25,943 bases of DNA from an archaeon (GTDB lineage Archaea > Asgardarchaeota > Thorarchaeia > Thorarchaeales > Thorarchaeaceae), in contig JAJRZD010000040.1 in assembly GCA_024275415.1 (NCBI GenBank), forward strand, positions 1-25,943, read 5' to 3'. The position numbers were made by a program, and so were the translations under genes. The notes under the pieces are model-generated. The model was not told where the DNA came from and did not search any database. It worked only from the letters and a program-made list of their open reading frames with translations. Positions 3,803 through 25,943 of the stretch are shown one piece after another. The number at the start of each line of letters is the position of its first letter. The stretch's first letter is position 1.

Positions 3803-4312
3803 ATGCCAAAGATTGAGAGAATCAAAAAGCGACATCTGTTGAAGCGAAAACAACAGAAAGCTGAAATACAGCGGATTGAGCAAGGATTGGGCGTCAAAGT
3901 CAACATTGATGATAAGACCCAATTGGAAACGGGAGTTCTGGATGACGGGACTCGTGTGCTATTGTATGGAAGTGAGATCCTATTCTTTGAGAAAGACAAG
4001 AGATTCTTTCCCACACTGCACGCTCTTCTAAAGAGTATGGTTTCGGTTCCGAAAGTCACCGTTGACATGGGTGCAGTTCGCTTTGTCGTCAATGGTGCAG
4101 ACATCATGAGACCTGGCGTGGTTGCAGTTGACGATTCTGTCAGAGAGAACTCTGTTGTTGCCATAGTGGATCAAAACCATGGCAAACCTCTTGCAGTGGG
4201 CATCTCCAAAATGAATGCCGAGGAGATGTGGGCCTCAACCAAGGGGAAGGTCGTCCTATCGATCCATCATGTGAATGATCATCTGTGGGATTTCACGAAA
4301 GGCCAGTCTTAG
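3803..4312 (+). CDS. PUA-domain RNA-binding protein (Tma20/MCT-1-like); start moved to ATG 3803
   Basis: FFPTL...PKVTVDMGAVRFVVNGADIMRPGV...KPLAVG...KGKVVLSIHHVNDHLW is the pre-PUA + PUA signature. ATG 3803 gives the typical basic N-terminus MPKIERIKKRH. Confidence 0.9.
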   Translation: MPKIERIKKRHLLKRKQQKAEIQRIEQGLGVKVNIDDKTQLETGVLDDGTRVLLYGSEILFFEKDKRFFPTLHALLKSMVSVPKVTVDMGAVRFVVNGADIMRPGVVAVDDSVRENSVVAIVDQNHGKPLAVGISKMNAEEMWASTKGKVVLSIHHVNDHLWDFTKGQS

Positions 4313-6999
4313 TCCTCCTCATCACTCGACATCCTTGCCCGAACATAGGCAAGTGCTGCTTTGTAAATCTCTTTCGCATAGATGGGATCTAGCCCTGAGT
4401 TCTCTGCAAACCTATCCCGAGCAAGCGTTTTCTTTTCCGGGTCGACATATTTCTTTAGGATGTCCGAGATTGATCTATACCCTTTGTCGTAGAGGGCTCT
4501 TGCGTCTTGTTTTGGCAATGTATATTGATATCCGTTCTTATCGAAAAGTTCCAACTCCAAGATATCAGTAGACACAATGTCCGACCTTGCCCCATATCTG
4601 AGTTGTTCGCTAAAGAGTTCCATGCGTTTGGACAGCCTTTTCCTTTTAATCAACTGGTAATAGTTGCTCAATTTCATCGCAATCTCACTACAAATATTGA
4701 TGAGCGAGTCAAGGTCACCTTCTTCGATGCCTACTGTGCCTATATTCTCATTGTTGATAGTCATGTTCCGCCCCTCCTCGTTGGCAAAGGCTAACACATC
4801 AGGCATATCGGATTCATTAATCCATCTCTCTAGAGCAGCACCCTTTATTCGCATCCGTCCCAGGGTCAGTACATCAAACCATGCATCAGGTTTCTCAAGC
4901 CCTGCCGCCTCCAGTTCAATCTCTGTGGGATAGGATGTTCTTGGTCTGACTATCTGTGCTTCATCGAAAGATAATACAAGGTCAATCATCTGCGTGTCAG
5001 AAGCATCATTGTCGAGCGCATCGATTTCATCTTGTTTCTCGAGATATCGGATGATCCCAAGCCCCGAACGAGCTGCCGCCAGTGTGTTTTCTGATAGCCT
5101 ATATCCCTTAACTGAAGAAACGAATACACCCTTCTTGTTCATCCATCCGAGAAGTGACTTATACATATATTTCATGTACTCCAAGTAGTCGCCATGCTGC
5201 ACACCCCGATAGGTTTCCGAAACTAGTCCCATCACCGCATCTTCTAAGATTTCCCACGAGAAATGCTTGAGGTACATAGCCTCTCGAACAATTAGATTTG
5301 CCATGACGGAGGGATGAATGCCCCCAGGCCGAATTGGTTTTAGTGGTTTATGAAGAAGCGTTTCTTCTAGCTCCTCTACTGTCTGAAATGTCTTCGAGGG
5401 CTGTTCAAACACAAGATACACACTGCCCCCGTATTTTGCAAGGTGGTATTCTCCAATCCTTCCAGCTATCTGGAGATATCGGGATCTGGCGGATAGGAAT
5501 CCCATTGCCCGGTCAAAGAGAATCACGATGCAATCAAAAGGAAAGCTGATCCCTGCAGTGATTCCTGTGGTAGATACGACAGATCGCACCTTTCCAATCT
5601 TGACTTTTTCTTCAAGACGTCTACGAACTTCAGAACGCAATCCTGAATGGTGGAATGCGACACCTTGCTTGAGAAACTCGTATAGTTGACCAGCGACAGG
5701 TAAGGTCTTGTCCTTTCCCACGACATATTCAGGAAGTGACTGATCAATGCTCCTAGGCCAGTGCCTTGAGATGACTCCAGCAAAGAATATCGCTTGGTAT
5801 CTGGAGGAAACCACAACAAGGATGGATTTTCTCTCATAGTCTCCCAAGTGTTCGATTATTGACTCGAGGACATACTCTTTCTGAAGAAGTGTTTTCTGCG
5901 TTCCATCGCTACTTGCAATCAGTACTCCATCATCCTCTTTCGTGACAATGAACTCGTCTGGACTGAGCCTAACACTAGGCCTGAACACTTTGGCATCCAG
6001 CCACTGCGCGATGGAATCAGTATCACCAAATCTTGATGACAATGTGATAATCCGTGATCTCCTCTTCAACAGCGTAATCAAAAGATCCAATCTTGAACTT
6101 CGATCAGTTCCCAAATTACTTGCAGTAACCTCCTGGATTGAAGAATCTAGCTCAGTCAGCTCATCAACAATGGTCAGCCGTATCTTGGAAACCCATTCTT
6201 CTGCCTGAAGGACATCAGAAAGGACGGCCTCATAGACTCCAACCACAATGTCAGCGTTGACCAGATCATCAACGGTGATTTTTTGTGTCCCATCAAGTCG
6301 TACAACTGAATATCCTAGATCCTTGAACAACTCCCCATACTCATTGATGACCTGTGTGTTGAGAGAAAGATATGGACTGATATAGAGACATTTCCGATTC
6401 TTCTGAAGGTTCATGAGAACCGCCACCATAGCTAAGACAGTCTTTCCGGATCCAGGGGGCATCTGAATAATGATGTTCTCGTCAAGACTCCCAATCTCGC
6501 GAAGAAAATTTTCCTGTGTTGGTAGAAGCTTGGTGTAGTTCTTATGGCGTAAAAGAACCTTGGCTATTTTGAAAAGTTCATTGTCTTTGGAGATTGGTCC
6601 AATCATTTCCTCGATTGCAGATAGTGCAAGTCGTCCTTCGTGAGTGACCATGAATCGTCGTTGTTTCTTCCGCTTATCTCCCAATGCCTGTACGTAACCT
6701 GCTTTGACAAGCTTGTTCATGCTCTCATAGAGTGTCCCACCGGTGGTAAGCTTCTTCCGAGCATTGTCATAATTGACCATTTCATCAGACCGCTCCCCAT
6801 CAGGACGGGACTTCGGTATATTATAGCCCATATTGGATAGAAGTCCTTCCACAATTTCTTCCCATCCCATTTCAGGGATTATATCACCAGCTTCTGGATT
6901 GAGAACCTGAAGTATCTCGATTGCATAACGATTTCCTAAGGACCTAAGATTGGCTCTCAATCCTTTGAGGTCATCGATTTCAGGTTTTTCCGCAGGCAT
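4309..6999 (-). CDS. Ski2/Hel308-like SF2 helicase with an N-terminal winged-helix (ArsR/MarR-like) domain and divergent helicase motifs
   Basis: Walker A MPPGSGKT, Ia YISPYLSL, II IVDELT, III LSSR, AFHHSGL, V STTGITAGISFP, VI QIAGRIG, and a C-terminal HhH-like ARALYDKGYRSISDI. The N-terminus has wHTH hallmarks (LRSLGNRYAIEILQVL ... TLYESMNKLVKAGYV ... RFMVTHEGRLAL). ATG 6999 is preferred over GTG 7008. Confidence 0.8.
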   Translation of the reverse strand: MPAEKPEIDDLKGLRANLRSLGNRYAIEILQVLNPEAGDIIPEMGWEEIVEGLLSNMGYNIPKSRPDGERSDEMVNYDNARKKLTTGGTLYESMNKLVKAGYVQALGDKRKKQRRFMVTHEGRLALSAIEEMIGPISKDNELFKIAKVLLRHKNYTKLLPTQENFLREIGSLDENIIIQMPPGSGKTVLAMVAVLMNLQKNRKCLYISPYLSLNTQVINEYGELFKDLGYSVVRLDGTQKITVDDLVNADIVVGVYEAVLSDVLQAEEWVSKIRLTIVDELTELDSSIQEVTASNLGTDRSSRLDLLITLLKRRSRIITLSSRFGDTDSIAQWLDAKVFRPSVRLSPDEFIVTKEDDGVLIASSDGTQKTLLQKEYVLESIIEHLGDYERKSILVVVSSRYQAIFFAGVISRHWPRSIDQSLPEYVVGKDKTLPVAGQLYEFLKQGVAFHHSGLRSEVRRRLEEKVKIGKVRSVVSTTGITAGISFPFDCIVILFDRAMGFLSARSRYLQIAGRIGEYHLAKYGGSVYLVFEQPSKTFQTVEELEETLLHKPLKPIRPGGIHPSVMANLIVREAMYLKHFSWEILEDAVMGLVSETYRGVQHGDYLEYMKYMYKSLLGWMNKKGVFVSSVKGYRLSENTLAAARSGLGIIRYLEKQDEIDALDNDASDTQMIDLVLSFDEAQIVRPRTSYPTEIELEAAGLEKPDAWFDVLTLGRMRIKGAALERWINESDMPDVLAFANEEGRNMTINNENIGTVGIEEGDLDSLINICSEIAMKLSNYYQLIKRKRLSKRMELFSEQLRYGARSDIVSTDILELELFDKNGYQYTLPKQDARALYDKGYRSISDILKKYVDPEKKTLARDRFAENSGLDPIYAKEIYKAALAYVRARMSSDEED

Positions 7000-7117
7000 A
7001 ACCACCACTCACTAATTCCGAGTAATCCAAGGTAAAATCTGTTTCGAATAGAGTTTCGGATAATACTCGCCCTTTTCTTTACGTCTGTTCTACTTCTGAT
7101 TGTCGAGGTGAATGTGT

Positions 7118-7520: not shown

Positions 7521-9446
7521 CTATCGCAGTTTGATGGTTTCTGTGACGGAAAGTGCCTTCGTGTCAATGTTCATAGATTTATGAATAGTAGATGCCAGAT
7601 TGATGCACTTGGAAGCCTCACCGTGGCATGTCAATACTTTTTCAGGAATAGGGTTGACTCTCTTGATGAAGTTCAGAATCTGTTTTCTATCAGAGTGACC
7701 AGAAAAGCCCTCAACCGTTTCAACTTGGAGGTTGACTGGGATAATCTGTTTCTGGCCTTCTCGGTTTCTCATCTGTGCTTCTTTCCAACCCTTTTGGATT
7801 CTTCTACCGAGTGTGCCTTCACCTTGATATGATACAAAGCAAACGGTGTTCTTCGAGTCAGGAGCAAGCAGACGGAAATAGTCCACACTGGGGCCACCAG
7901 CAAGCATCCCAGACGTTGCCATTATTATGGCAGGCTCCCCTTCGATAATCTCCTCACGCTGCTCAGGATTGTCCACTTGCACGAAGATGTCATTCAAGAA
8001 GGGGTTGACACCCTGATGAAATATCATTTCTCGTATCTTCTTGCTAAGTGCTTCTGGGTGTGTGGTATGGATGGCGGTCGCTTGAGCGATCATTCCCTCC
8101 AGATAGACTGGTATTCGGGGAATCCTTCCTTTGGACACCAAGTCTTCGATTACCAACATAATCTCTTGTGCTCGTCCCACAGCCAGCACGGGGATGAGAA
8201 CTTTTCCTCCACGTTCAATAGTCCGCTTTACTACAGATGCGAATCTCTTCTCGACCTCTTGCCGGGGTGGCATTTTATCAGTCGGATGGCCATATGTGCT
8301 TTCAACAATGAGGGTTTCAAGCCTCGGAAACGTGAATGTCGCAGGTTCAAGCAGCCGTGTCCGACCAAACTTGAAGTCGCCTGTATATGCCAGATTATAT
8401 TGACCGTCTCCAATGTGAAGATGAATGATTGCAGACCCAAGGATATGACCTGCATTATGGAGGGTGAGACGCACATCTGGGGCTATATCTGTGACTTCTC
8501 CATAGTTGAGTGGTATTGTGTGAATGATAGCCTCCTTCACATCGCGCTCTCGATATGGTCGAAGCTTGCCTTCCCGTTCGGCAACCTCGAGATAATCCAG
8601 CTGCAAGAGGGTGGCAAGGTTGAGTGTGGGCGCTGTCATATATACAGGCCCTCTGTAGCCGTACTTGTATAGGAATGGTACCATTCCGCAATGGTCAAGA
8701 TGGGCATGTGTGATAATGACCGCATCTAGTTGTTCGATATTGAACTCGGGCATGTCCAACCTTGGAAACGCCTTGCTAGGGGTGCCAACATTGACACCAC
8801 AGTCAATCAGGATGTTAGTTTCAGGCGTTTGCAGAAACATAGACTGTCTTCCGACTTCCTTGAACCCACCAAAGGCTACAAGTCGAATCCACCCGTTCTC
8901 TATCATTGCCCTGCGATGGATTCGTCGTCCAATCTCGCGAAATGCCCGATTTCTCTTTGCTGCCTCAGATTGGATAATATGTCGAATCTGCTTTATGAGA
9001 AGGCTTTCGATTGGTGGTGTCCTCATCACATTTGGGCGCCAGAGGGTCTGACGAGTTATCTCCCTAAGGGTCGTGCCACTCCGACCAATGACCAGTCCGG
9101 GTTTTTGAGCCTCGATAATGACTTCGCCTCTCGAATCGTCAAAGTCGATGCTAGTGATAGTCGCATCCTCGGGGACTAGCTCCTTCACGAGTCGTTCTGT
9201 TTCATCATGAGGAAGTCGCACTTCTGGAGAGGATCTGACAACGATTCTTTTTCTCATCTTTCGTGCAAGAGCCTTGATCTTATCCCCGTCATCTAGAAGG
9301 ATCTTGGGTGCTTTTGAGTAAATTGCAATCTCAGGTCCTTCATACTCCACTGAGCTAATCGAAGCAGATCGAGGAAGAGCAGCCTTGACTATATCTCGAA
9401 TGTCCATGTTATTATCATCGTAATTGTTAGAAGCCATACTAGTCAC
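7521..9446 (-). CDS. fttA: Beta-CASP ribonuclease aCPSF1 / transcription termination factor FttA (2 KH domains + MBL + beta-CASP)
   Basis: VEYEGPEIAIY, KH motif KPGLVIGRSG, GGFKEVGR, HAHLDHCG, AGHILGS, YTGD, ESTYG, FSGHSD, CHGE; adjacent to psmB. The start could be 9446, 9437 or slightly downstream. Confidence 0.95.
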   Translation of the reverse strand: MTSMASNNYDDNNMDIRDIVKAALPRSASISSVEYEGPEIAIYSKAPKILLDDGDKIKALARKMRKRIVVRSSPEVRLPHDETERLVKELVPEDATITSIDFDDSRGEVIIEAQKPGLVIGRSGTTLREITRQTLWRPNVMRTPPIESLLIKQIRHIIQSEAAKRNRAFREIGRRIHRRAMIENGWIRLVAFGGFKEVGRQSMFLQTPETNILIDCGVNVGTPSKAFPRLDMPEFNIEQLDAVIITHAHLDHCGMVPFLYKYGYRGPVYMTAPTLNLATLLQLDYLEVAEREGKLRPYRERDVKEAIIHTIPLNYGEVTDIAPDVRLTLHNAGHILGSAIIHLHIGDGQYNLAYTGDFKFGRTRLLEPATFTFPRLETLIVESTYGHPTDKMPPRQEVEKRFASVVKRTIERGGKVLIPVLAVGRAQEIMLVIEDLVSKGRIPRIPVYLEGMIAQATAIHTTHPEALSKKIREMIFHQGVNPFLNDIFVQVDNPEQREEIIEGEPAIIMATSGMLAGGPSVDYFRLLAPDSKNTVCFVSYQGEGTLGRRIQKGWKEAQMRNREGQKQIIPVNLQVETVEGFSGHSDRKQILNFIKRVNPIPEKVLTCHGEASKCINLASTIHKSMNIDTKALSVTETIKLR

Positions 9447-9534
9447 TTCACCTGTAAGTGCACAACTACTACATTTGGCCCCATTTCATTGCTTGAACAG
9501 AACAAGTTCAAGCACAACGTACCCGGTGATCCAG

Positions 9535-10173
9535 TTATTCACTTTTCCAGATTTTCTGGATCGTTTCTTTGTCCACCACTTGGTATCCATTCTTATCAAT
9601 CACACTGACAAGAATCGAGTTCCCTGATGCTGCATCACGTTCAATAGCGGCTGCAACGGCTCGGATTGCAATCTCGATTGCCTTCTTCTTTGGTAAGCCG
9701 TCCTTATATGCAGTTTCTAGAACACCTAATGCGACAGGAGAGCCAGAACCGGTAGCAGTGAACTTGTCGGGTAGTACGGATCCTATGTAGTCAGTGTAGA
9801 ACACTTGCGGACCCTCGTCATCAAATCCTCCAACGAGACATTGTAACAGGTAGCCACCACGAGCTTGGAACATTATATTGCTTAGCAGTCGAGTAAGCGC
9901 TCTCACACGGATAGGCCTGTTTCTTTGAATCTCAAAGAGTTTTGCCTCTGCTCTCAGGAGATCCATAATGTTTTGAGCATCAGCCACAGAACCTGCAATA
10001 GTTGCTCCAATTCTGTCTGTGATCTTGTAGATCTTCTGGGCAGTCTTATTTGCTATTAAGAACCCCATTGTAGCTCTTTGGTCGCTTGCCAGCACTACAC
10101 AGTCCTTTGCAATCAGCCCTACTGTCGTTGTACCTGTCTTGAGTTCTTGTTCGGATTGCATTGGATGTTCCAT
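9535..10173 (-). CDS. psmB: Proteasome beta subunit
   Basis: Propeptide followed by KTG/TTTVG (catalytic Thr1), ASDQRAT, KIYKI, TGSGS, RDAASG. Confidence 0.97.
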   Translation of the reverse strand: MEHPMQSEQELKTGTTTVGLIAKDCVVLASDQRATMGFLIANKTAQKIYKITDRIGATIAGSVADAQNIMDLLRAEAKLFEIQRNRPIRVRALTRLLSNIMFQARGGYLLQCLVGGFDDEGPQVFYTDYIGSVLPDKFTATGSGSPVALGVLETAYKDGLPKKKAIEIAIRAVAAAIERDAASGNSILVSVIDKNGYQVVDKETIQKIWKSE

Positions 10174-10240
10174 TTCAAGTAGCTCCTTTAATAGAGATTA
10201 AGTCTCGGAGAACTAGTGACGTTTAGTGGCTTTCTGATGA

Positions 10241-10296
10241 GTTGATTTAAAGGTTTCCACATGGGACAAAATCATCCATGTGACCCGTTTCAACGG
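10241..10296. repeat. Nested inverted repeats between the FKBP stop and the psmB promoter region
   Basis: CACATGG (10258-10264) / CCATGTG (10276-10282); outer GTTGA (10241-10245) / TCAAC (10290-10294); alternative CCGTT/AACGG (10285-10296). Confidence 0.5.
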
Positions 10297-10299
10297 TTT

Positions 10300-11157
10300 T
10301 CAGCTCGCATCAGTGGTCTGTGGTTCAGGACGAGGCCAAGTGATGACGATTTTCACTTCCTTCGCCTTCTCGACAATCTTGAGTGCGTCCTGTGCGATGC
10401 CAATATCAGCATAGTTAGCATGTTCGAGGTATCTCCCTCTCCATGGTAGTTCGATTGTCACGGTTTTGCCTGTCACCTTCGCGGAATACTCGTCCTCTGG
10501 CAACCCTGGAAGTCGTCTCTTGATTATCGCCTTGAGTTTATCCTCGTCATTTGATAGAATCTCTTTGACTGTCACATCGAATACCCATGTCTTATCTGCC
10601 ATGGGGTTGTTGAAGTCAACAAGCACAGTACGGCCGAGTACGTGTGTGATGACCCCCTTTTCGTTCCCGAAAGTGATTTCTTCGCCCTTATACCCTCGTG
10701 CTCCACGTTTGCGTATCTTGACCAAAGGAATTTTCTTGACCAGTTCTGGTTTTCTCACACCAGGACCTTCTTCTGGGGGGACTTCAATTGTTTTTGTTTC
10801 ACCCACCGCCATCCCTATCATGGCTTTCTCCAAGATGGGAAGCAACCAATTCCATCCAATAGCAACAAGATACGGCTCGTATTTTGAGTCTTCTTTGTAA
10901 AGGCCATTCTCGCGGGCTACATCTTCCAGTGTTGTGTCAAACACTTCGCCATCGTCTTTAGTCCTACCGACATAATCGACATAGACCAAGCTATTCTCAC
11001 GGACAACAGTTTCGACCTTTGCTTTCTTCGCTGTTTTCTTGGATCCTCCAGATGATTTAGCCTTTGGTTTGGTCGCGTTCTTCTCAGTTGTCTTCTCTGA
11101 TTTTGTGGATGCGGTTTCTTTCTTGGCCTTTTCAGCTGATTCTTTCTCTGTCATCAT
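10300..11157 (-). CDS. Long-type archaeal FKBP/SlyD peptidyl-prolyl isomerase with a Lys-rich N-terminal extension
   Basis: VYVDYVG...GEVFDTT...YEPYLVAIG...LEKAMIGM.VGETKTIEVPPEE..G.R...VDFNNPMADKTWVFDVTV, followed by the archaeal C-terminal extension. Confidence 0.92.
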   Translation of the reverse strand: MMTEKESAEKAKKETASTKSEKTTEKNATKPKAKSSGGSKKTAKKAKVETVVRENSLVYVDYVGRTKDDGEVFDTTLEDVARENGLYKEDSKYEPYLVAIGWNWLLPILEKAMIGMAVGETKTIEVPPEEGPGVRKPELVKKIPLVKIRKRGARGYKGEEITFGNEKGVITHVLGRTVLVDFNNPMADKTWVFDVTVKEILSNDEDKLKAIIKRRLPGLPEDEYSAKVTGKTVTIELPWRGRYLEHANYADIGIAQDALKIVEKAKEVKIVITWPRPEPQTTDAS

Positions 11158-11207
11158 TTGAACCCTCTGGAGGTTTGTAATCGTACTCTGCGGGCGTGCT
11201 CAGAGTT

Positions 11208-11243
11208 GTTATAAAACGGTTTCCGTGCGTCCTTTTTTATAAC
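11208..11243. promoter_or_regulatory. Inverted pair of TATA-like boxes; the minus-strand TTTTATAA is the likely FKBP promoter
   Basis: GTTATAAAA (11208-11216) and TTTTATAAC (11235-11243) are exact reverse complements 18 nt apart. The minus-strand box is preceded by purine-rich GGAAACC and lies ~50 nt upstream of the FKBP start. Confidence 0.5.
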
Positions 11244-11821
11244 GTTCCGCGTATCACGACCAATCGCTCAAAGAAAAGGACTGTTTCTTGGACTATCGTG
11301 GTGTCGAACCCGTTTGCCATCATCACTTCTATCAGGTACTTGATGTCACCCAGACTGGATGCGATGAGGTATATCCGTCCACTACGAGCCAAGTGGTCTA
11401 TGCTTTTGATGATGAACCTTTCAGAAACCTCAGTTCCCTTCTCACCCCCGACCAGTGCTGGATCCATTGATGTCTGCCCTTCATCCTGCGGGAGGTATGG
11501 AGGGTTAAATGCAATCAGTGAGAACTTGAATGATGGCGATAGTGCGTCGAATAAATCCGACTGAACCACATTCGCATTGTGGGAGGCATGATGCTTCATT
11601 AGATTCCTACAAGTGTTAATCACAGCGGCGTGTTGTATATCGACCGCAATGACCCGCCGTACATGATCTAACAGATTCAGTGATATGTATCCTGAGCCAC
11701 ACCCCATATCAAGAACCACGTCCTGAGGGCACACTTCAATCGCGTCATGGAGCAAGAATGTGTCCTCTCCCGGAGGGTATACTCCCTGAAGGACATGTAC
11801 TGCATAGACGGTATCTTTCAA
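11237..11821 (-). CDS. HemK2/N6AMT1-like (release factor glutamine) methyltransferase
   Basis: VYPPGEDTFLL, SAM motif LDMGCGSG, FNPPY; start overlaps the ksgA stop. Confidence 0.9.
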   Translation of the reverse strand: MKDTVYAVHVLQGVYPPGEDTFLLHDAIEVCPQDVVLDMGCGSGYISLNLLDHVRRVIAVDIQHAAVINTCRNLMKHHASHNANVVQSDLFDALSPSFKFSLIAFNPPYLPQDEGQTSMDPALVGGEKGTEVSERFIIKSIDHLARSGRIYLIASSLGDIKYLIEVMMANGFDTTIVQETVLFFERLVVIRGTL

Positions 11822-18616: not shown

Positions 18617-19204
18617 CTATCTAGTCCTATGTGAGAATTCCTTCAACTTCTCACCGAATGGGTCAATCTCTGGGGTTTCGTCCTTCTCAATCCTCTCATC
18701 TTGATATTGGAACAGAACTGATTCCCCGGTAACTGCAGAGGTTATTGCACGGAGTTCATCCTTTGAGTACCTTATGCGTTCTCGATCCTCGGATCTTAGC
18801 ATGACAATGCTTTCCTTTATCCCGTTTGGTAAGTACAGACTATTCACACCTACTTCGACGGCTGGAGAAATCAGATCTCGGACTATCGTTCGCAACTTTG
18901 CAGGGCCCTCGACAATCATAGACTTCCCAAACGTATCAGCAATCGCATCCATGACAACTTCATTCTGTAACAGGATATCCTTGTTCTTTTTCTTGACAAC
19001 TAAGATGAGAAGATTCTTTGTACGGATTGCCCGGAGCAGATGTAAACCATCCAGATCCGGATGGCTTTTTTTCTGTTCGAGAATCCATCCGCTAAACTCC
19101 ACATCGAAGGAAGAGATCTGTCCGGTATCAAGACGTTCCTGACAGCTGGGGCATAGCATATCTGATTCCAAGTCAAAAATACATACTGGGAGTCGCATTA
19201 GCAT
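18617..19204 (-). CDS. Archaeal NusA-like protein with an N-terminal zinc-finger-type motif (NusA2 family)
   Basis: MRLPVCIFDLESDMLCPSCQERL..G.IS..DV N-terminus followed by KH-like segments (LLILVV...; LISPAVEVGVNSLYLPNG). Confidence 0.8.
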   Translation of the reverse strand: MLMRLPVCIFDLESDMLCPSCQERLDTGQISSFDVEFSGWILEQKKSHPDLDGLHLLRAIRTKNLLILVVKKKNKDILLQNEVVMDAIADTFGKSMIVEGPAKLRTIVRDLISPAVEVGVNSLYLPNGIKESIVMLRSEDRERIRYSKDELRAITSAVTGESVLFQYQDERIEKDETPEIDPFGEKLKEFSHRTR

Positions 19205-21472: not shown

Positions 21473-21504
21473 ATATGATATCAGCCATGACAGTAGTAGG
21501 TCAA

Positions 21505-21660
21505 TTACCTCTTTCTTCTATTTGGCCTGAGGTCCTTGTTCTTGCACTTTCTGCACTTCTTGGCGGCAACAGGGTTTGTTGCACCGCATGTGCGGCATAT
21601 AGACTTGTATAGCAAGTAGTGCTGTGCGAGTCGTCGTTTCTCTATATCAGCAACTGGCAT
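21505..21660 (-). CDS. rpl40e: 50S ribosomal protein L40e (51 aa, absent from the ORF track)
   Basis: Manual translation: MPVADIEKRRLAQHYLLYKSICRTCGATNPVAAKKCRKCKNKDLRPNRRKR*, with the CxxC...CxxC and LRP signature. A second in-frame ATG lies at 21663. Confidence 0.95.
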   Translation of the reverse strand: MPVADIEKRRLAQHYLLYKSICRTCGATNPVAAKKCRKCKNKDLRPNRRKR

Positions 21661-21730
21661 CATTAGAACCTCGTCTAATTCGAATGGTGGACCATCCTTC
21701 GTCCACTTTCACGCCAACCGACATACTATG

Positions 21731-21738
21731 AATATAAA
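21731..21738 (-). promoter_or_regulatory. Probable TATA box for the rpl40e-tRNA-rpl38e unit
   Basis: Minus-strand TTTATATT ~70 nt upstream of rpl40e; GAGGTT RBS-like sequence just before the start. Confidence 0.45.
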
Positions 21739-21770
21739 CCTGTTCCTCTGGTAAGGAGAAGAAGGGTTTG

Positions 21771-21790
21771 GGCTGGGACTCCTCCCAGCC
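21771..21790 (-). terminator. GC-rich hairpin downstream of sucD (candidate terminator or stabiliser)
   Basis: GGCTGGGA-(GGAG)-TCCCAGCC 8-bp stem 15 nt after the sucD stop, followed on the minus strand by pyrimidine-rich CCCTTCTTCTCCTT. Confidence 0.5.
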
Positions 21791-21804
21791 ATTGGAGTGA
21801 AACA

Positions 21805-23900: not shown

Positions 23901-25943
23901 TTAACTGATTGTGTCAAGAATCCGGTTCAATCGCTCGCCTATCGCATTGGACTGTTCTCTTAGTCGCGGCGACTCGTCATCCAACAGTGTACCCAGAATC
24001 GTGTTAAAATAATGAATCTCCTCAAAGCAGTTCTCCATGATTCCCGGGGCATCAGCATCACGGAACTCGGAAACGCCCTTATTGCTGTTCTGTATCAAAT
24101 CAAAGGCCCGTTCCCACACATCCTTCGACACCGGCGATTGTGCTCGAACCAACTCAATCAAGATATCCTCGATGTTGGCTCTCTTTGTTGACAATGCCTT
24201 CCTGACTCTCTTGGCGTCTTTGACTGGGACTCCGAGCATTGTAACTGTTCGTCCCAAGTCTGTGCAAGACACTTCCTTTCCTTGTTGTACCACGAGTCCC
24301 TCTCGTTCCAGCTCGTCTAACAGCTCAAGACCTGCCAGAGCCTTGCGCATGACAGAAACAGCATACTGTGCTATCTTCTCATCATCTGATGCATACATCA
24401 TGAACTTTGTCAGATGCTTGCAGAGGCGATGTTTCCGGATACCTTGATATTTCCAAGACTCGCATGTACAAGAAAATCCTTCGTCATCCCGCAGGATAAC
24501 ATGATGCCAGAGGTTTCGGCTCTCGCTGTGAACAAGTCCCTCAACTTTAGTCGGGGTCATCGATACAATCTTGACACTTGAATCAGGGATGTCATTTGCT
24601 CTCCGGATGGTAGTCATTGTTGCTCTACGCAAGATATGGGTCTGAATCGAGTCTTTCTCGTCCACATCAGACTTGTCAGCATCCTTTGTGCTCATCTTAG
24701 CTGCCCAGTAGGTACGGCTAAGCACGGAGAAAGGATCCTCCTCTTTTGCCAAGCAGATCTCACCCAAGACAAGATCCTGAATATTCTCAGGGTCATCCAT
24801 ATTGCTATCGACCTCACCAAGGATAGGTGTAATCGAGCTATCTGCATGGGTTTCAAAGTATTTTGAAACCACTCGTTTTCGTTCCACATCATTCTCCACA
24901 ACGACAATGCCAAATGCCCTGCTATCGATACCCTTTCTTCCCGCTGAATGTAGGACATCTGCCAGTTGCCAGTCAGATATCAATGTGAGCGCGCTATCAC
25001 CATCCTCGTTTGCCGAATCCTGCATATATACTCCAAGTACGAATACCGTATAGGCCTTCAGACGACTTGCGACTGCAAAACTAGTGGGCATCACCAGCAC
25101 GGGCAATAGGTTATCTTCCCATGCAAGGGACAACAACCGTCTCTGCTCCCGGGAGAGACCACCATGCAAGAACCCAACCCCCCTTCGTACGCTTTTTGAG
25201 ATCTTCTTCGTTATCTCGCAACCGGTATGTTGTTTCATCAGTCGGCCAGCCAACTCGAACAATTCGTCCTGATGACCCACTGTGAGATTAAGATCAAGAC
25301 GCTCAGTTCGCTCGTCACCCTCCGCTAGTATCAATGCTATGTCCTCTGCAGTTTTTGGCCCTGTACAAAGCAACAGTACCTGGCCTTTCTTTGACATGAC
25401 ATACTCGGTCAGGTCAGTCAATGACTCGTAAAGGTTCTCAAAGGCTTTGACACTGAATATCCTCTCGATGTCTTCCTTCTTGTCCTCTATGACCTCTGCG
25501 CGTAGCCAGAGTTGCAGGTCATCCATATCAGCCACTGGAGGACAAACGGCAACAAACTGGATGTCTGTACCATCCCCCTTCATAGTCACAATCGATTTCT
25601 CAAGGAATTCGCCAATTCCTGGTTGACCAATGAGATCCAAGCGGTCAATCAACACGACTTTGACATCCTCGAGGATATTGGGCTGTGTTTTCAGTGCGAT
25701 GCTGAAGGATTTGAATGTCGCAATGACTATCCGTCCTATCTTTCTGATCGGTCGTATGGCATCCCTTCGTCTAACAATCAGAGTGGTTTCAACGCCCAAA
25801 CGAGCACTACGCTGTCCGATAGAGTGGAGTCGTTTCTCTGCATGGTGTGGATTGGGACATAGAACGATCGCTCGTGCTCTGAAATCAGAAACCACTCGAT
25901 TAAGCACTGAGATCTCTGCGATCTCCAACCCCTCATCGAAATC
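23901..25943 (-). CDS. Degenerate Hel308/Ski2-like protein with an inserted SWIM zinc finger; 5'-truncated by the window
   Basis: The frame is open to the window end (DFDEGLEIAE...). Helicase-like landmarks: AIVLCP (Ia), LIDRLD (II), DLQLWLRA, GVGFLHGGL, HSAGRKG (VI), SRTYWA, CTDLGR. SWIM motif CTC-x13-CKH at 24414-24470. Confidence 0.75.
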   Translation of the reverse strand, partial: DFDEGLEIAEISVLNRVVSDFRARAIVLCPNPHHAEKRLHSIGQRSARLGVETTLIVRRRDAIRPIRKIGRIVIATFKSFSIALKTQPNILEDVKVVLIDRLDLIGQPGIGEFLEKSIVTMKGDGTDIQFVAVCPPVADMDDLQLWLRAEVIEDKKEDIERIFSVKAFENLYESLTDLTEYVMSKKGQVLLLCTGPKTAEDIALILAEGDERTERLDLNLTVGHQDELFELAGRLMKQHTGCEITKKISKSVRRGVGFLHGGLSREQRRLLSLAWEDNLLPVLVMPTSFAVASRLKAYTVFVLGVYMQDSANEDGDSALTLISDWQLADVLHSAGRKGIDSRAFGIVVVENDVERKRVVSKYFETHADSSITPILGEVDSNMDDPENIQDLVLGEICLAKEEDPFSVLSRTYWAAKMSTKDADKSDVDEKDSIQTHILRRATMTTIRRANDIPDSSVKIVSMTPTKVEGLVHSESRNLWHHVILRDDEGFSCTCESWKYQGIRKHRLCKHLTKFMMYASDDEKIAQYAVSVMRKALAGLELLDELEREGLVVQQGKEVSCTDLGRTVTMLGVPVKDAKRVRKALSTKRANIEDILIELVRAQSPVSKDVWERAFDLIQNSNKGVSEFRDADAPGIMENCFEEIHYFNTILGTLLDDESPRLREQSNAIGERLNRILDTIS

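Follow-up and report, generated by a model that had tools for sequence, protein, structure and literature searches.

Locus and gene extent

The window analysed in this study was the whole of contig JAJRZD010000040.1 (25,943 nucleotides; assembly GCA_024275415.1, Thorarchaeaceae), which is the entire contig C17 of a 3.5-Mb genome. At its right-hand end a minus-strand frame (23901-25943) runs open off the window edge and encodes a Hel308-like protein with a SWIM zinc-finger domain set into its winged helix. Judged from its sequence and from a structural model of an ortholog, the gene (hereafter the dead gene) encodes a pseudo-helicase and belongs to a family of Hel308-like Asgard proteins that carry SWIM inside the winged helix.

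The final 141 bases of C17 were identical to the first 141 bases of contig C123, an exact match found nowhere else. The full gene, whose retrieval had been called for in an earlier sequence-only reading of the window, was obtained through this overlap; the joined open reading frame (ORF) encodes 733 amino acids (aa), with an ATG at C123:300 and a GGAG element just upstream, and a TTG two codons past the ATG coincides with the start of the orthologs. Full-length orthologs were 730-740 aa long and 46-63% identical, their N-termini aligned from the first residues, and an assembly chimera was rejected as a reading of the gene. Named homologs of the protein were Thorarchaeota. A promoter and terminator scan upstream of the gene returned nothing, the tool being bacterial and unsuited to archaea. 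The features of the gene are listed below; motor motifs were placed by alignment.

23901-25943, minus: 3' 680 codons and stop of the ~733-aa gene, the first 53 codons lying on C123 (contig join and orthologs)
25926-25943, minus: Walker A position; the first six codons read in the window, DFDEGL, stand at T-G-S-G-K-T
25839-25859, minus: motif Ia, CPNPHHA; Pro (96%) for the Arg of PLRALA
25764-25772, minus: RRR for the RecA1 (T)GD loop, forming a newly gained, conserved basic patch (Arg in 94, 96 and 86%)
25635-25646, minus: motif II, DRLD; the catalytic Glu is replaced by Arg (100%) and the His by Asp (100%)
25536-25544, minus: motif III, CPP for SAT (Pro in 98 and 96%)
25353-25370, minus: motif IV, Arg pair lost
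25137-25166, minus: motif IVa, H-x-G ... R-R; His, Gly and both Arg invariant, the best kept nucleic-acid-contact motif
25056-25091, minus: motif V, invariant Pro for the first Thr; Gly lost
24936-24959, minus: motif VI, Asp/Glu for Gln and Ser/Ala for the first Arg; second Arg retained (Arg 91%, Lys 8%)
24702-24785, minus: N-terminal half of the winged-helix domain (profile and model)
24336-24701, minus: insert, comprising a low-confidence linker followed by SWIM, which is built of helices, a four-stranded sheet, the zinc site and further helices
24414-24470, minus: SWIM zinc-ligand motif C545-x-C547-x13-C561-x-H563, with a basic aromatic loop
24228-24335, minus: C-terminal half of the winged helix (helix, wing hairpin, T-x-x-G; profile and model)
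23904-24227, minus: shortened domain 4 (model and alignment)
24009-24047, minus: ratchet-helix equivalent within domain 4; Gly retained, Tyr at the Hel308 Trp position

The motifs on which the sequence-only reading was built were all located on the minus strand where it had placed them: DRLD (25635-25646), CPP (25536-25544), HSAGRKG (24930-24950), SRTYWA (24702-24719), CTCES (24456-24470), LCKHL (24411-24425), LDELEREG (24297-24320) and SCTDLGR (24249-24269).

Loss of the motor motifs

Motifs were compared in an alignment of 97 orthologs of the dead gene, 74 active paralogs and the canonical Hel308 of the same genome. Gly-Lys-Thr was gone at Walker A in 97/97 orthologs, and the motifs were intact in the 74 active paralogs. 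Across the Walker A columns (P-T-G-S-G-K-T) the orthologs read Tyr or His, Asp (100%), Tyr (95%), Asp (72%), Glu (100%), Ala (97%) and Tyr (96%). Walker A had been thought to lie outside the window; most of its position is in fact occupied by the first six codons read, from which it can be judged. The family pattern of motif II was Asp/Glu, Arg (100%), Leu, Asp (100%), and that of motif III was Cys/Ser-Pro-Pro. The Q motif (L-x-x-F-Q) was present in 100% of orthologs, preceded in the dead-gene protein by only ~30 residues with no Cys cluster.

Since the substituted residues are fixed among orthologs, they suggest a new structural role. The loss of ATPase residues in every aligned ortholog is what would be expected of the catalytically dead protein first proposed, and strongly predicts that it cannot hydrolyse ATP or translocate. 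Gone are the P-loop, the catalytic Glu, the motifs for coupling and the first arginine finger, and both the ssDNA-dependent ATPase and the 3'-5' translocation of Hel308 are predicted to be absent.

Conservation and selection

A strong match to the dead gene was found in 83 of 86 Thorarchaeaceae genomes. No internal stops were seen in the 77 listed near-full or partial matches (E below 1e-190), nor in shorter ones. The ratio of nonsynonymous to synonymous change (dN/dS; Nei-Gojobori, 25 non-independent pairs with unsaturated synonymous sites) was 0.110 overall, 0.101 in RecA1, 0.110 in RecA2 and 0.044 in the SWIM core, and for the active paralog (14 pairs) it was 0.083 overall and 0.073 in the SWIM core. 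By these codon comparisons the dead gene is under purifying selection, slightly weaker overall than in the active paralog and concentrated on the SWIM domain.

The open frames of the listed matches and the dN/dS of 0.11 refuted a decaying pseudogene. Taken together with its companion idea, an ATPase still active through non-canonical residues, this explanation is very improbable: the dead clade sits on a very long branch (1.7-2.1 changes per column), and the Q motif and second motif VI Arg are retained, but an active site would have to work with no Lys or Gly-rich loop at Walker A and with an invariant Arg for the catalytic Glu.

Fold and SWIM insert

An AlphaFold2 model was made for ortholog P0003 (62% identical) and not for the window protein itself (predicted local distance difference test, pLDDT, 83.8; predicted template modelling score, pTM, 0.83). 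The best Foldseek match of this model was Hjm 2zj5 (E 1.3e-24, template modelling score, TM, 0.64), in agreement with the Hel308-like fold read from the sequence, and was followed by the POLQ helicase domain, Mtr4 and Brr2. Tandem RecA domains, then a winged helix and a ratchet domain, were present. Neither of the two observations that the sequence-only reading had named as refuting it was made: the orthologs lack DExH, and the model has RecA-like tandem domains. Against an Atlas cluster of motif-intact SWIM-Hel308 proteins the TM was 0.82. P0003 scored 85.7 bits with NCBIfam NF040935 (cut-off 1200 bits), below which the genome's canonical Hel308 also fell (593.6).

The motifs flanking the insert stood ~128 aa apart. 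As canonical Hel308 has ~17 aa there, the net insert is ~110 aa; the ~130 aa given earlier describes the span well but overstates the insertion. That SWIM lies inside the winged helix was borne out in two ways. A profile of the insert and its flanks matched the genome's canonical Hel308 over residues 475-513 and again over 524-567, leaving SWIM unmatched between them, and in a model of the region the flanks aligned to the Hel308 winged helix (2va8 residues 421-513, Z 7.0).

Pfam PF04434 (SWIM) matched 19 of 32 aligned family members (best E 3.7e-7). Ortholog P0003 scored 20.0 bits against a cut-off of 19.6, and the window's own insert fell below it (16 bits, E 0.009); the entire 680-aa window protein gave no Pfam match, the SWIM match appearing only with the insert scanned alone. 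The four ligands C-x-C-x(n)-C-x-H were invariant in the family alignment and sat between a beta-sheet and a helix by secondary structure. On this sequence evidence the SWIM call is beyond chance, and from the four invariant ligands zinc binding is inferred. The top VIA-align match of the insert was 9rwz_M (ZSWIM8 114-288), over model residues 54-162, with moderate similarity (Z 7.7, root mean square deviation 3.1, 92 residues aligned). Among the top 50 VIA-align rows Shu2 did not appear; when the insert model was compared with the PDB in Foldseek, nothing matched at E<=0.001; and an ESM Atlas feature search with the insert gave no usable match.

Asgard SWIM-Hel308 family and origin of the dead gene

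A second Hel308 with a SWIM insert lies on contig C119 of the same genome, motifs intact, and is unlinked to the dead gene. The dead and active paralogs aligned colinearly along 637 columns at 22% identity (HHalign probability 99.95%). The C119 copy (L012:3571-5751) carries one in-frame TAA (L012:3901-3903), between motifs Ia and Ib, which is either an assembly error or a recent inactivation; active paralogs of this type were intact in nearly all relatives, the exception being G333 (2 TAG).

A taxonomic survey, also suggested in the sequence-only reading, was made with the insert profile and placed the SWIM-in-Hel308 arrangement across the Asgard archaea. The profile matched 260 of 400 Asgard genomes; the true count is below 260, since weak matches include winged-helix-only and other SWIM proteins. 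Named members came from Thor-, Loki/Promethe-, Hel-, Odin-, Baldr-, Ranar-, Asgard- and Heimdall/Hodarchaeota, and most retain the ATPase motifs. No named member was found outside Asgard, the genome search having covered Asgard only. No literature on the family or its dead variant was found in a search that left out most subscription journals, and 'SWIM' is absent from a 2024 survey of Ski2-like proteins (PMC10946056) and a 2026 review of Hel308 (PMC13623763). The family and its dead variant are apparently undescribed in print. The architecture had earlier been called unrecognised, which holds in so far as no published description was found; it is common, however, to a large and mostly motif-intact Asgard family.

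SWIM-bearing proteins split from canonical Hel308 in a full-length quick tree (Shimodaira-Hasegawa-like approximate likelihood ratio test, SH-aLRT, 100) and on the RecA core alone (92/97). Several members had partly eroded motifs (family f28, DETY; Ranarchaeia, DDAQ; Odinarchaeia, EECD and DEFQ), and one Odinarchaeia copy had DYLH and no Walker A. Three trees joined the dead clade with the half-degenerate Odinarchaeia, Ranarchaeia and f28 copies (SH-aLRT 99, 91 and 86), which have in common with it a CxCExW/Y-basic-aromatic SWIM loop. Long-branch attraction is possible for this grouping and the common loop is perhaps ancestral. In an approximately unbiased (AU) test, a sister relation to the Thorarchaeota active paralog, as from a recent duplication, was not rejected (p 0.244). 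Kinship with the Ranarchaeia copy receives independent support from synteny: the half-degenerate Ranarchaeia gene has PAC2 divergently upstream and beta-CASP, TruD and PTH2 downstream, as in the window. Other strongly degenerate Hel308-like proteins were seen in Odinarchaeia and Ranarchaeia (L167:8001-9782, P0263; P0262/P0448), by which motor loss may have happened more than once.

Whether the dead protein regulates an active helicase, by analogy with the dead cassette of Brr2, was considered from the distribution of the two paralogs. Both occur in most Thorarchaeaceae genomes at near-equal length with colinear domains, Brr2 provides a precedent in the same Ski2-like family (bioRxiv 10.1101/758698), and the invariant Q motif would make adenine-nucleotide sensing possible. 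The active paralog was rarer than its supposed regulator, however, being detected in 57/86 genomes (E<=1e-150) vs 83/86. Six genomes at least 90% complete had the dead gene with no active paralog detected, a pattern that is suggestive only, since these are incomplete assemblies. A degenerate copy was also the only SWIM-Hel308 found in two Odinarchaeia-like and two f28 genomes searched, among them G304 (single contig, 98% complete), whose only SWIM copy was half-degenerate. With the two genes unlinked as well, such regulation is rather unlikely. A complex prediction for the C-terminal halves of the two paralogs scored 0.00 and counts neither way.

Nucleic-acid contacts and charge

The Arg of motif Ia, the Arg pair of motif IV and the Thr of motif V track single-stranded DNA in Ski2-like helicases. 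All of these were lost in the dead gene. Contacts that were retained are the Thr of motif Ib, four residues of motif IVa (His, Gly and two Arg, all 100%) and, where the ratchet Trp would stand, an aromatic residue; the RRR replacing the RecA1 (T)GD loop was gained. The median net charge of the SWIM domain was +8 in the dead gene vs +1 in the active paralog; the dead-gene protein is otherwise acidic (net charge about -10). This mixture of lost and retained contacts makes canonical tracking of single-stranded DNA unlikely and passive binding plausible.

Genomic neighbourhood

The dead gene lay between a divergent PAC2 gene (proteasome-chaperone family) and sucC-sucD in 14-15 of 15 Thorarchaeota loci, PAC2 adjoining it in 15/15. 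Nearby were genes for a Nop2/RsmB methyltransferase, a UPF0113/NIP7 PUA protein, a threonine-synthase-like protein, a beta-CASP nuclease and L38e. Linkage to RadA paralogs was not seen for the dead gene.

The adjacency of PAC2, which extends to Ranarchaeia, is one of three grounds for a pure protein scaffold acting apart from nucleic acids, for instance in proteolysis, with SWIM as an assembly module; the others are the loss of many DNA-tracking residues and the ZSWIM8 SWIM region as the best structural match of the insert. Divergent adjacency need not imply a common pathway, however, and a Z of 7.7, such as common arrangements also give, mirrors the fold that SWIM domains have in common. No ZSWIM8-type BC- or cullin-box was seen, no search having been aimed at one, and the basic patches are conserved. 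This scaffold is considered improbable.

The neighbours with RNA functions raise another explanation, that of an ATP-independent RNA-binding adaptor working in RNA processing or ribosome biogenesis through the basic SWIM surface. The RsmB/Nop2-type methyltransferase, UPF0113/NIP7 PUA, beta-CASP and L38e genes are conserved neighbours; the half-degenerate Ranarchaeia copy stands beside SpoU in addition to beta-CASP, TruD and PTH2; and in two genomes of another family an RsmB/F-PUA pair lies ~1 kb from SWIM-Hel308. RNA helicases also occur among Ski2-like proteins, but the Hel308 branch, from which the dead gene descends, works chiefly on DNA (PMC10946056). The block itself is one of mixed housekeeping synteny (sucCD, threonine-synthase-like, PAC2), in which the RNA genes mostly run on the other strand or stand several genes away, and the neighbours of the Odinarchaeia copies are unrelated to those of the dead gene. 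An RNA adaptor is held to be unlikely.

The active Thorarchaeota paralog had a fixed cluster of other content, with an XPD-like helicase, two RadA/Rad51 paralogs and an XPG/FEN1-like nuclease; a RadA-type gene is also in the cluster of this genome. The linkage of RadA, RadB-like, XPD-like and XPG/FEN1-like genes recurs in part in several other Asgard families. The active-paralog cluster (L107, G000:C119:72000-91000; L096-L105) also holds membrane-like proteins, among its products being a ~780-aa protein that has a hydrophobic segment at its N-terminus and matches nothing in Pfam. A weakly similar ~1280-aa protein lies near the helicase in some Lokiarchaeia-like genomes. The half-degenerate SWIM-Hel308 of Odinarchaeia-like genomes stands ~4 kb from a tubulin-family gene (L108:4011-5291, 9157-11343, G304; L109).

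Elsewhere in the window, another Hel308-like protein of 899 aa is encoded at 4309-7008 (minus), with an N-terminal winged-helix-like extension, GKT intact, DELT as motif II, SSR as motif III and a very long tree branch. A 195-aa ORF between TruD and Alba (18617-19204, minus) had a weak Pfam match to ribosomal protein S7e (E 0.028, below cut-off). The gap between L38e and sucD occupies 21489-21804, and the sequence upstream of L38e resembles a structural RNA gene; ARAGORN found no tRNA in the window.

Proposed function

The product of the dead gene in Thorarchaeota is probably a passive binding adaptor and not a motor, a view based on the loss of the residues for ATP use while the inserted zinc finger was kept. 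The explanation favoured for its action, tentatively and at a little under an even chance, is that an ATP-free, conformationally fixed Hel308-shaped body with a basic SWIM domain binds single-stranded or branched DNA, together with partners, in repair or recombination. In this proposal, invariant acidic residues of the old P-loop (Asp54, Glu57) are predicted, with moderate confidence, to pair with the invariant Arg of motif II (Arg154), to fill the phosphate site and to hold the RecA domains in one conformation. More weakly, the rigid body might present the basic, zinc-stabilised SWIM surface along with the residual contacts (RecA1 RRR loop, motif IVa, ratchet Tyr), and these surfaces might grip single-stranded or branched DNA without moving. 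The protein could then, again weakly, bring in partners or set them in place, or it could assist annealing, during the repair or recombination of DNA.

The assignment to DNA draws on ancestry and on the context of the active relatives, and not on the gene's own neighbours. The closest solved structures are DNA helicases, and ATPase-null HELQ still anneals naked DNA (PMC13623763), a precedent for ATP-free DNA activity in the Hel308/HELQ family. Several points weigh against binding to DNA in repair. No repair genes were found in the 11 dead-gene loci that were profile-screened or among the conserved neighbours of the 15 loci, and the contacts with single-stranded DNA in motifs Ia, IV and V are those that were lost. 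The protein ends after domain 4, as had been noticed from the sequence, and so lacks the helix-hairpin-helix (HhH) domain 5, which is linked to annealing in Hel308 (PMC13623763). SWIM domains of known structure serve mainly to arrange contacts between proteins: that of ZSWIM8 organises an E3 ligase (PMC13083262), and Shu1-Shu2 shows no DNA binding (PMC5727457). The 'DNA-binding recombination scaffold' of the sequence-only reading is therefore an inference, to which RNA or protein partners are the alternatives.

A more speculative extension, to which little probability is given, is that SWIM-Hel308 unites in one chain a HELQ-like helicase and an SWS1-like SWIM domain, which eukaryotes employ as separate parts in the control of recombination. 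One lineage would have lost its motor stepwise, partly in Odin- and Ranarchaeia and fully in Thorarchaeota, and have become a near-core mediator, free of ATP, by which RadA paralogs are loaded or restrained through SWIM.

In eukaryotes, SWIM proteins and HELQ both act with Rad51 paralogs, and the Asgard archaea, as yet the only group in which SWIM-Hel308 has been seen, are the nearest kin of eukaryotes. The searchable archaeal literature has few free-standing, conserved pseudo-helicases, and no paper joining 'pseudohelicase' with 'archaea' was found in it. Natural controls are at hand here, in an active paralog of equal architecture and graded half-degenerate relatives, and would allow a test of ATP-free action by a Hel308-type protein; Hel308 and HELQ are now viewed as annealing enzymes (PMC13623763). 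The dead gene also offers a test of what a prokaryotic SWIM domain binds.

Comparison with known systems

The dead gene has the RecA1-RecA2-winged helix-domain 4 fold of Hel308/Hjm (2zj5, 2va8, 2p6r; NF040935) and HELQ/POLQ (TM 0.58-0.65). Hel308/Hjm and HELQ/POLQ gave its best profile matches, with the Q motif, motif IVa and ratchet-helix position in common. Unlike Hel308, it has substitutions in Walker A, DExH, SAT and motifs V and VI, a SWIM insert of ~110 aa, a shorter domain 4 and no HhH domain 5. As the catalytic and domain-5 features are missing, the gene was not filed as Hel308 despite its fold and descent; the genome's own canonical Hel308 is on C43.

The C-terminal pseudo-helicase cassette of Brr2 is likewise a dead Ski2-like unit in RecA-RecA-winged helix order. 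It is fused to an active cassette, with Sec63 and IG domains present, whereas the dead gene is a free-standing single-cassette ORF of 730-740 aa with a SWIM insert.

The zinc motif CxCx(n)CxH is shared with Shu2/SWS1 and ZSWIM8, n being 13 in the dead gene within the usual SWIM spacing of 6-16 (PMC5727457). Membership of the Shu2/SWS1 group was rejected, since the SWIM of the dead gene is an internal domain of a 733-aa helicase-fold protein and Shu2/SWS1 is a small SWIM protein without a helicase body. The link to SWS1 and HELQ drawn in the sequence-only reading stands as an analogy only, and a separate SWIM protein of the genome is more SWS1-like. This stand-alone 135-aa protein (L106:754-1158, G000:C10; CxC-x14-CxH, no Pfam match at E 0.01), which resembles SWS1/ZSWIM7, lies ~1.8 kb from a helicase-like ORF of 961 codons. 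SWIM-like modules were also seen in other Asgard fusions: C-terminal to DUF72 (PF01904; HDCxxW...CKH) in several genomes (L039, L049, L057, L058, L060, L066) but not in this one, and, at L081:1057-1869 and L082:841-1842, C-terminal to a helical region of no assigned family and N-terminal to a probable HD domain identified by eye.

Like the dead gene, ASH-Ski2 is an archaeal Ski2-like protein of Asgard with a Cys-based zinc module (PMC10946056). It is active and has a four-Cys N-terminal domain, whereas the dead gene starts at RecA1 and has its zinc site (CCCH) inside the winged helix; in the absence of the N-terminal four-Cys domain by which ASH-Ski2 is defined (PMC10946056), this identity was rejected.

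The motif-intact Asgard SWIM-Hel308 proteins, such as the C119 paralog, have an insert identical in kind and place. They differ from the dead gene in keeping the ATPase motifs and in standing, in many cases, in clusters with RadA/RadB-like, XPD and FEN1-like genes and not in a housekeeping block, and the SWIM loop of the active Thorarchaeota copy is neutral whereas that of the dead gene is basic.

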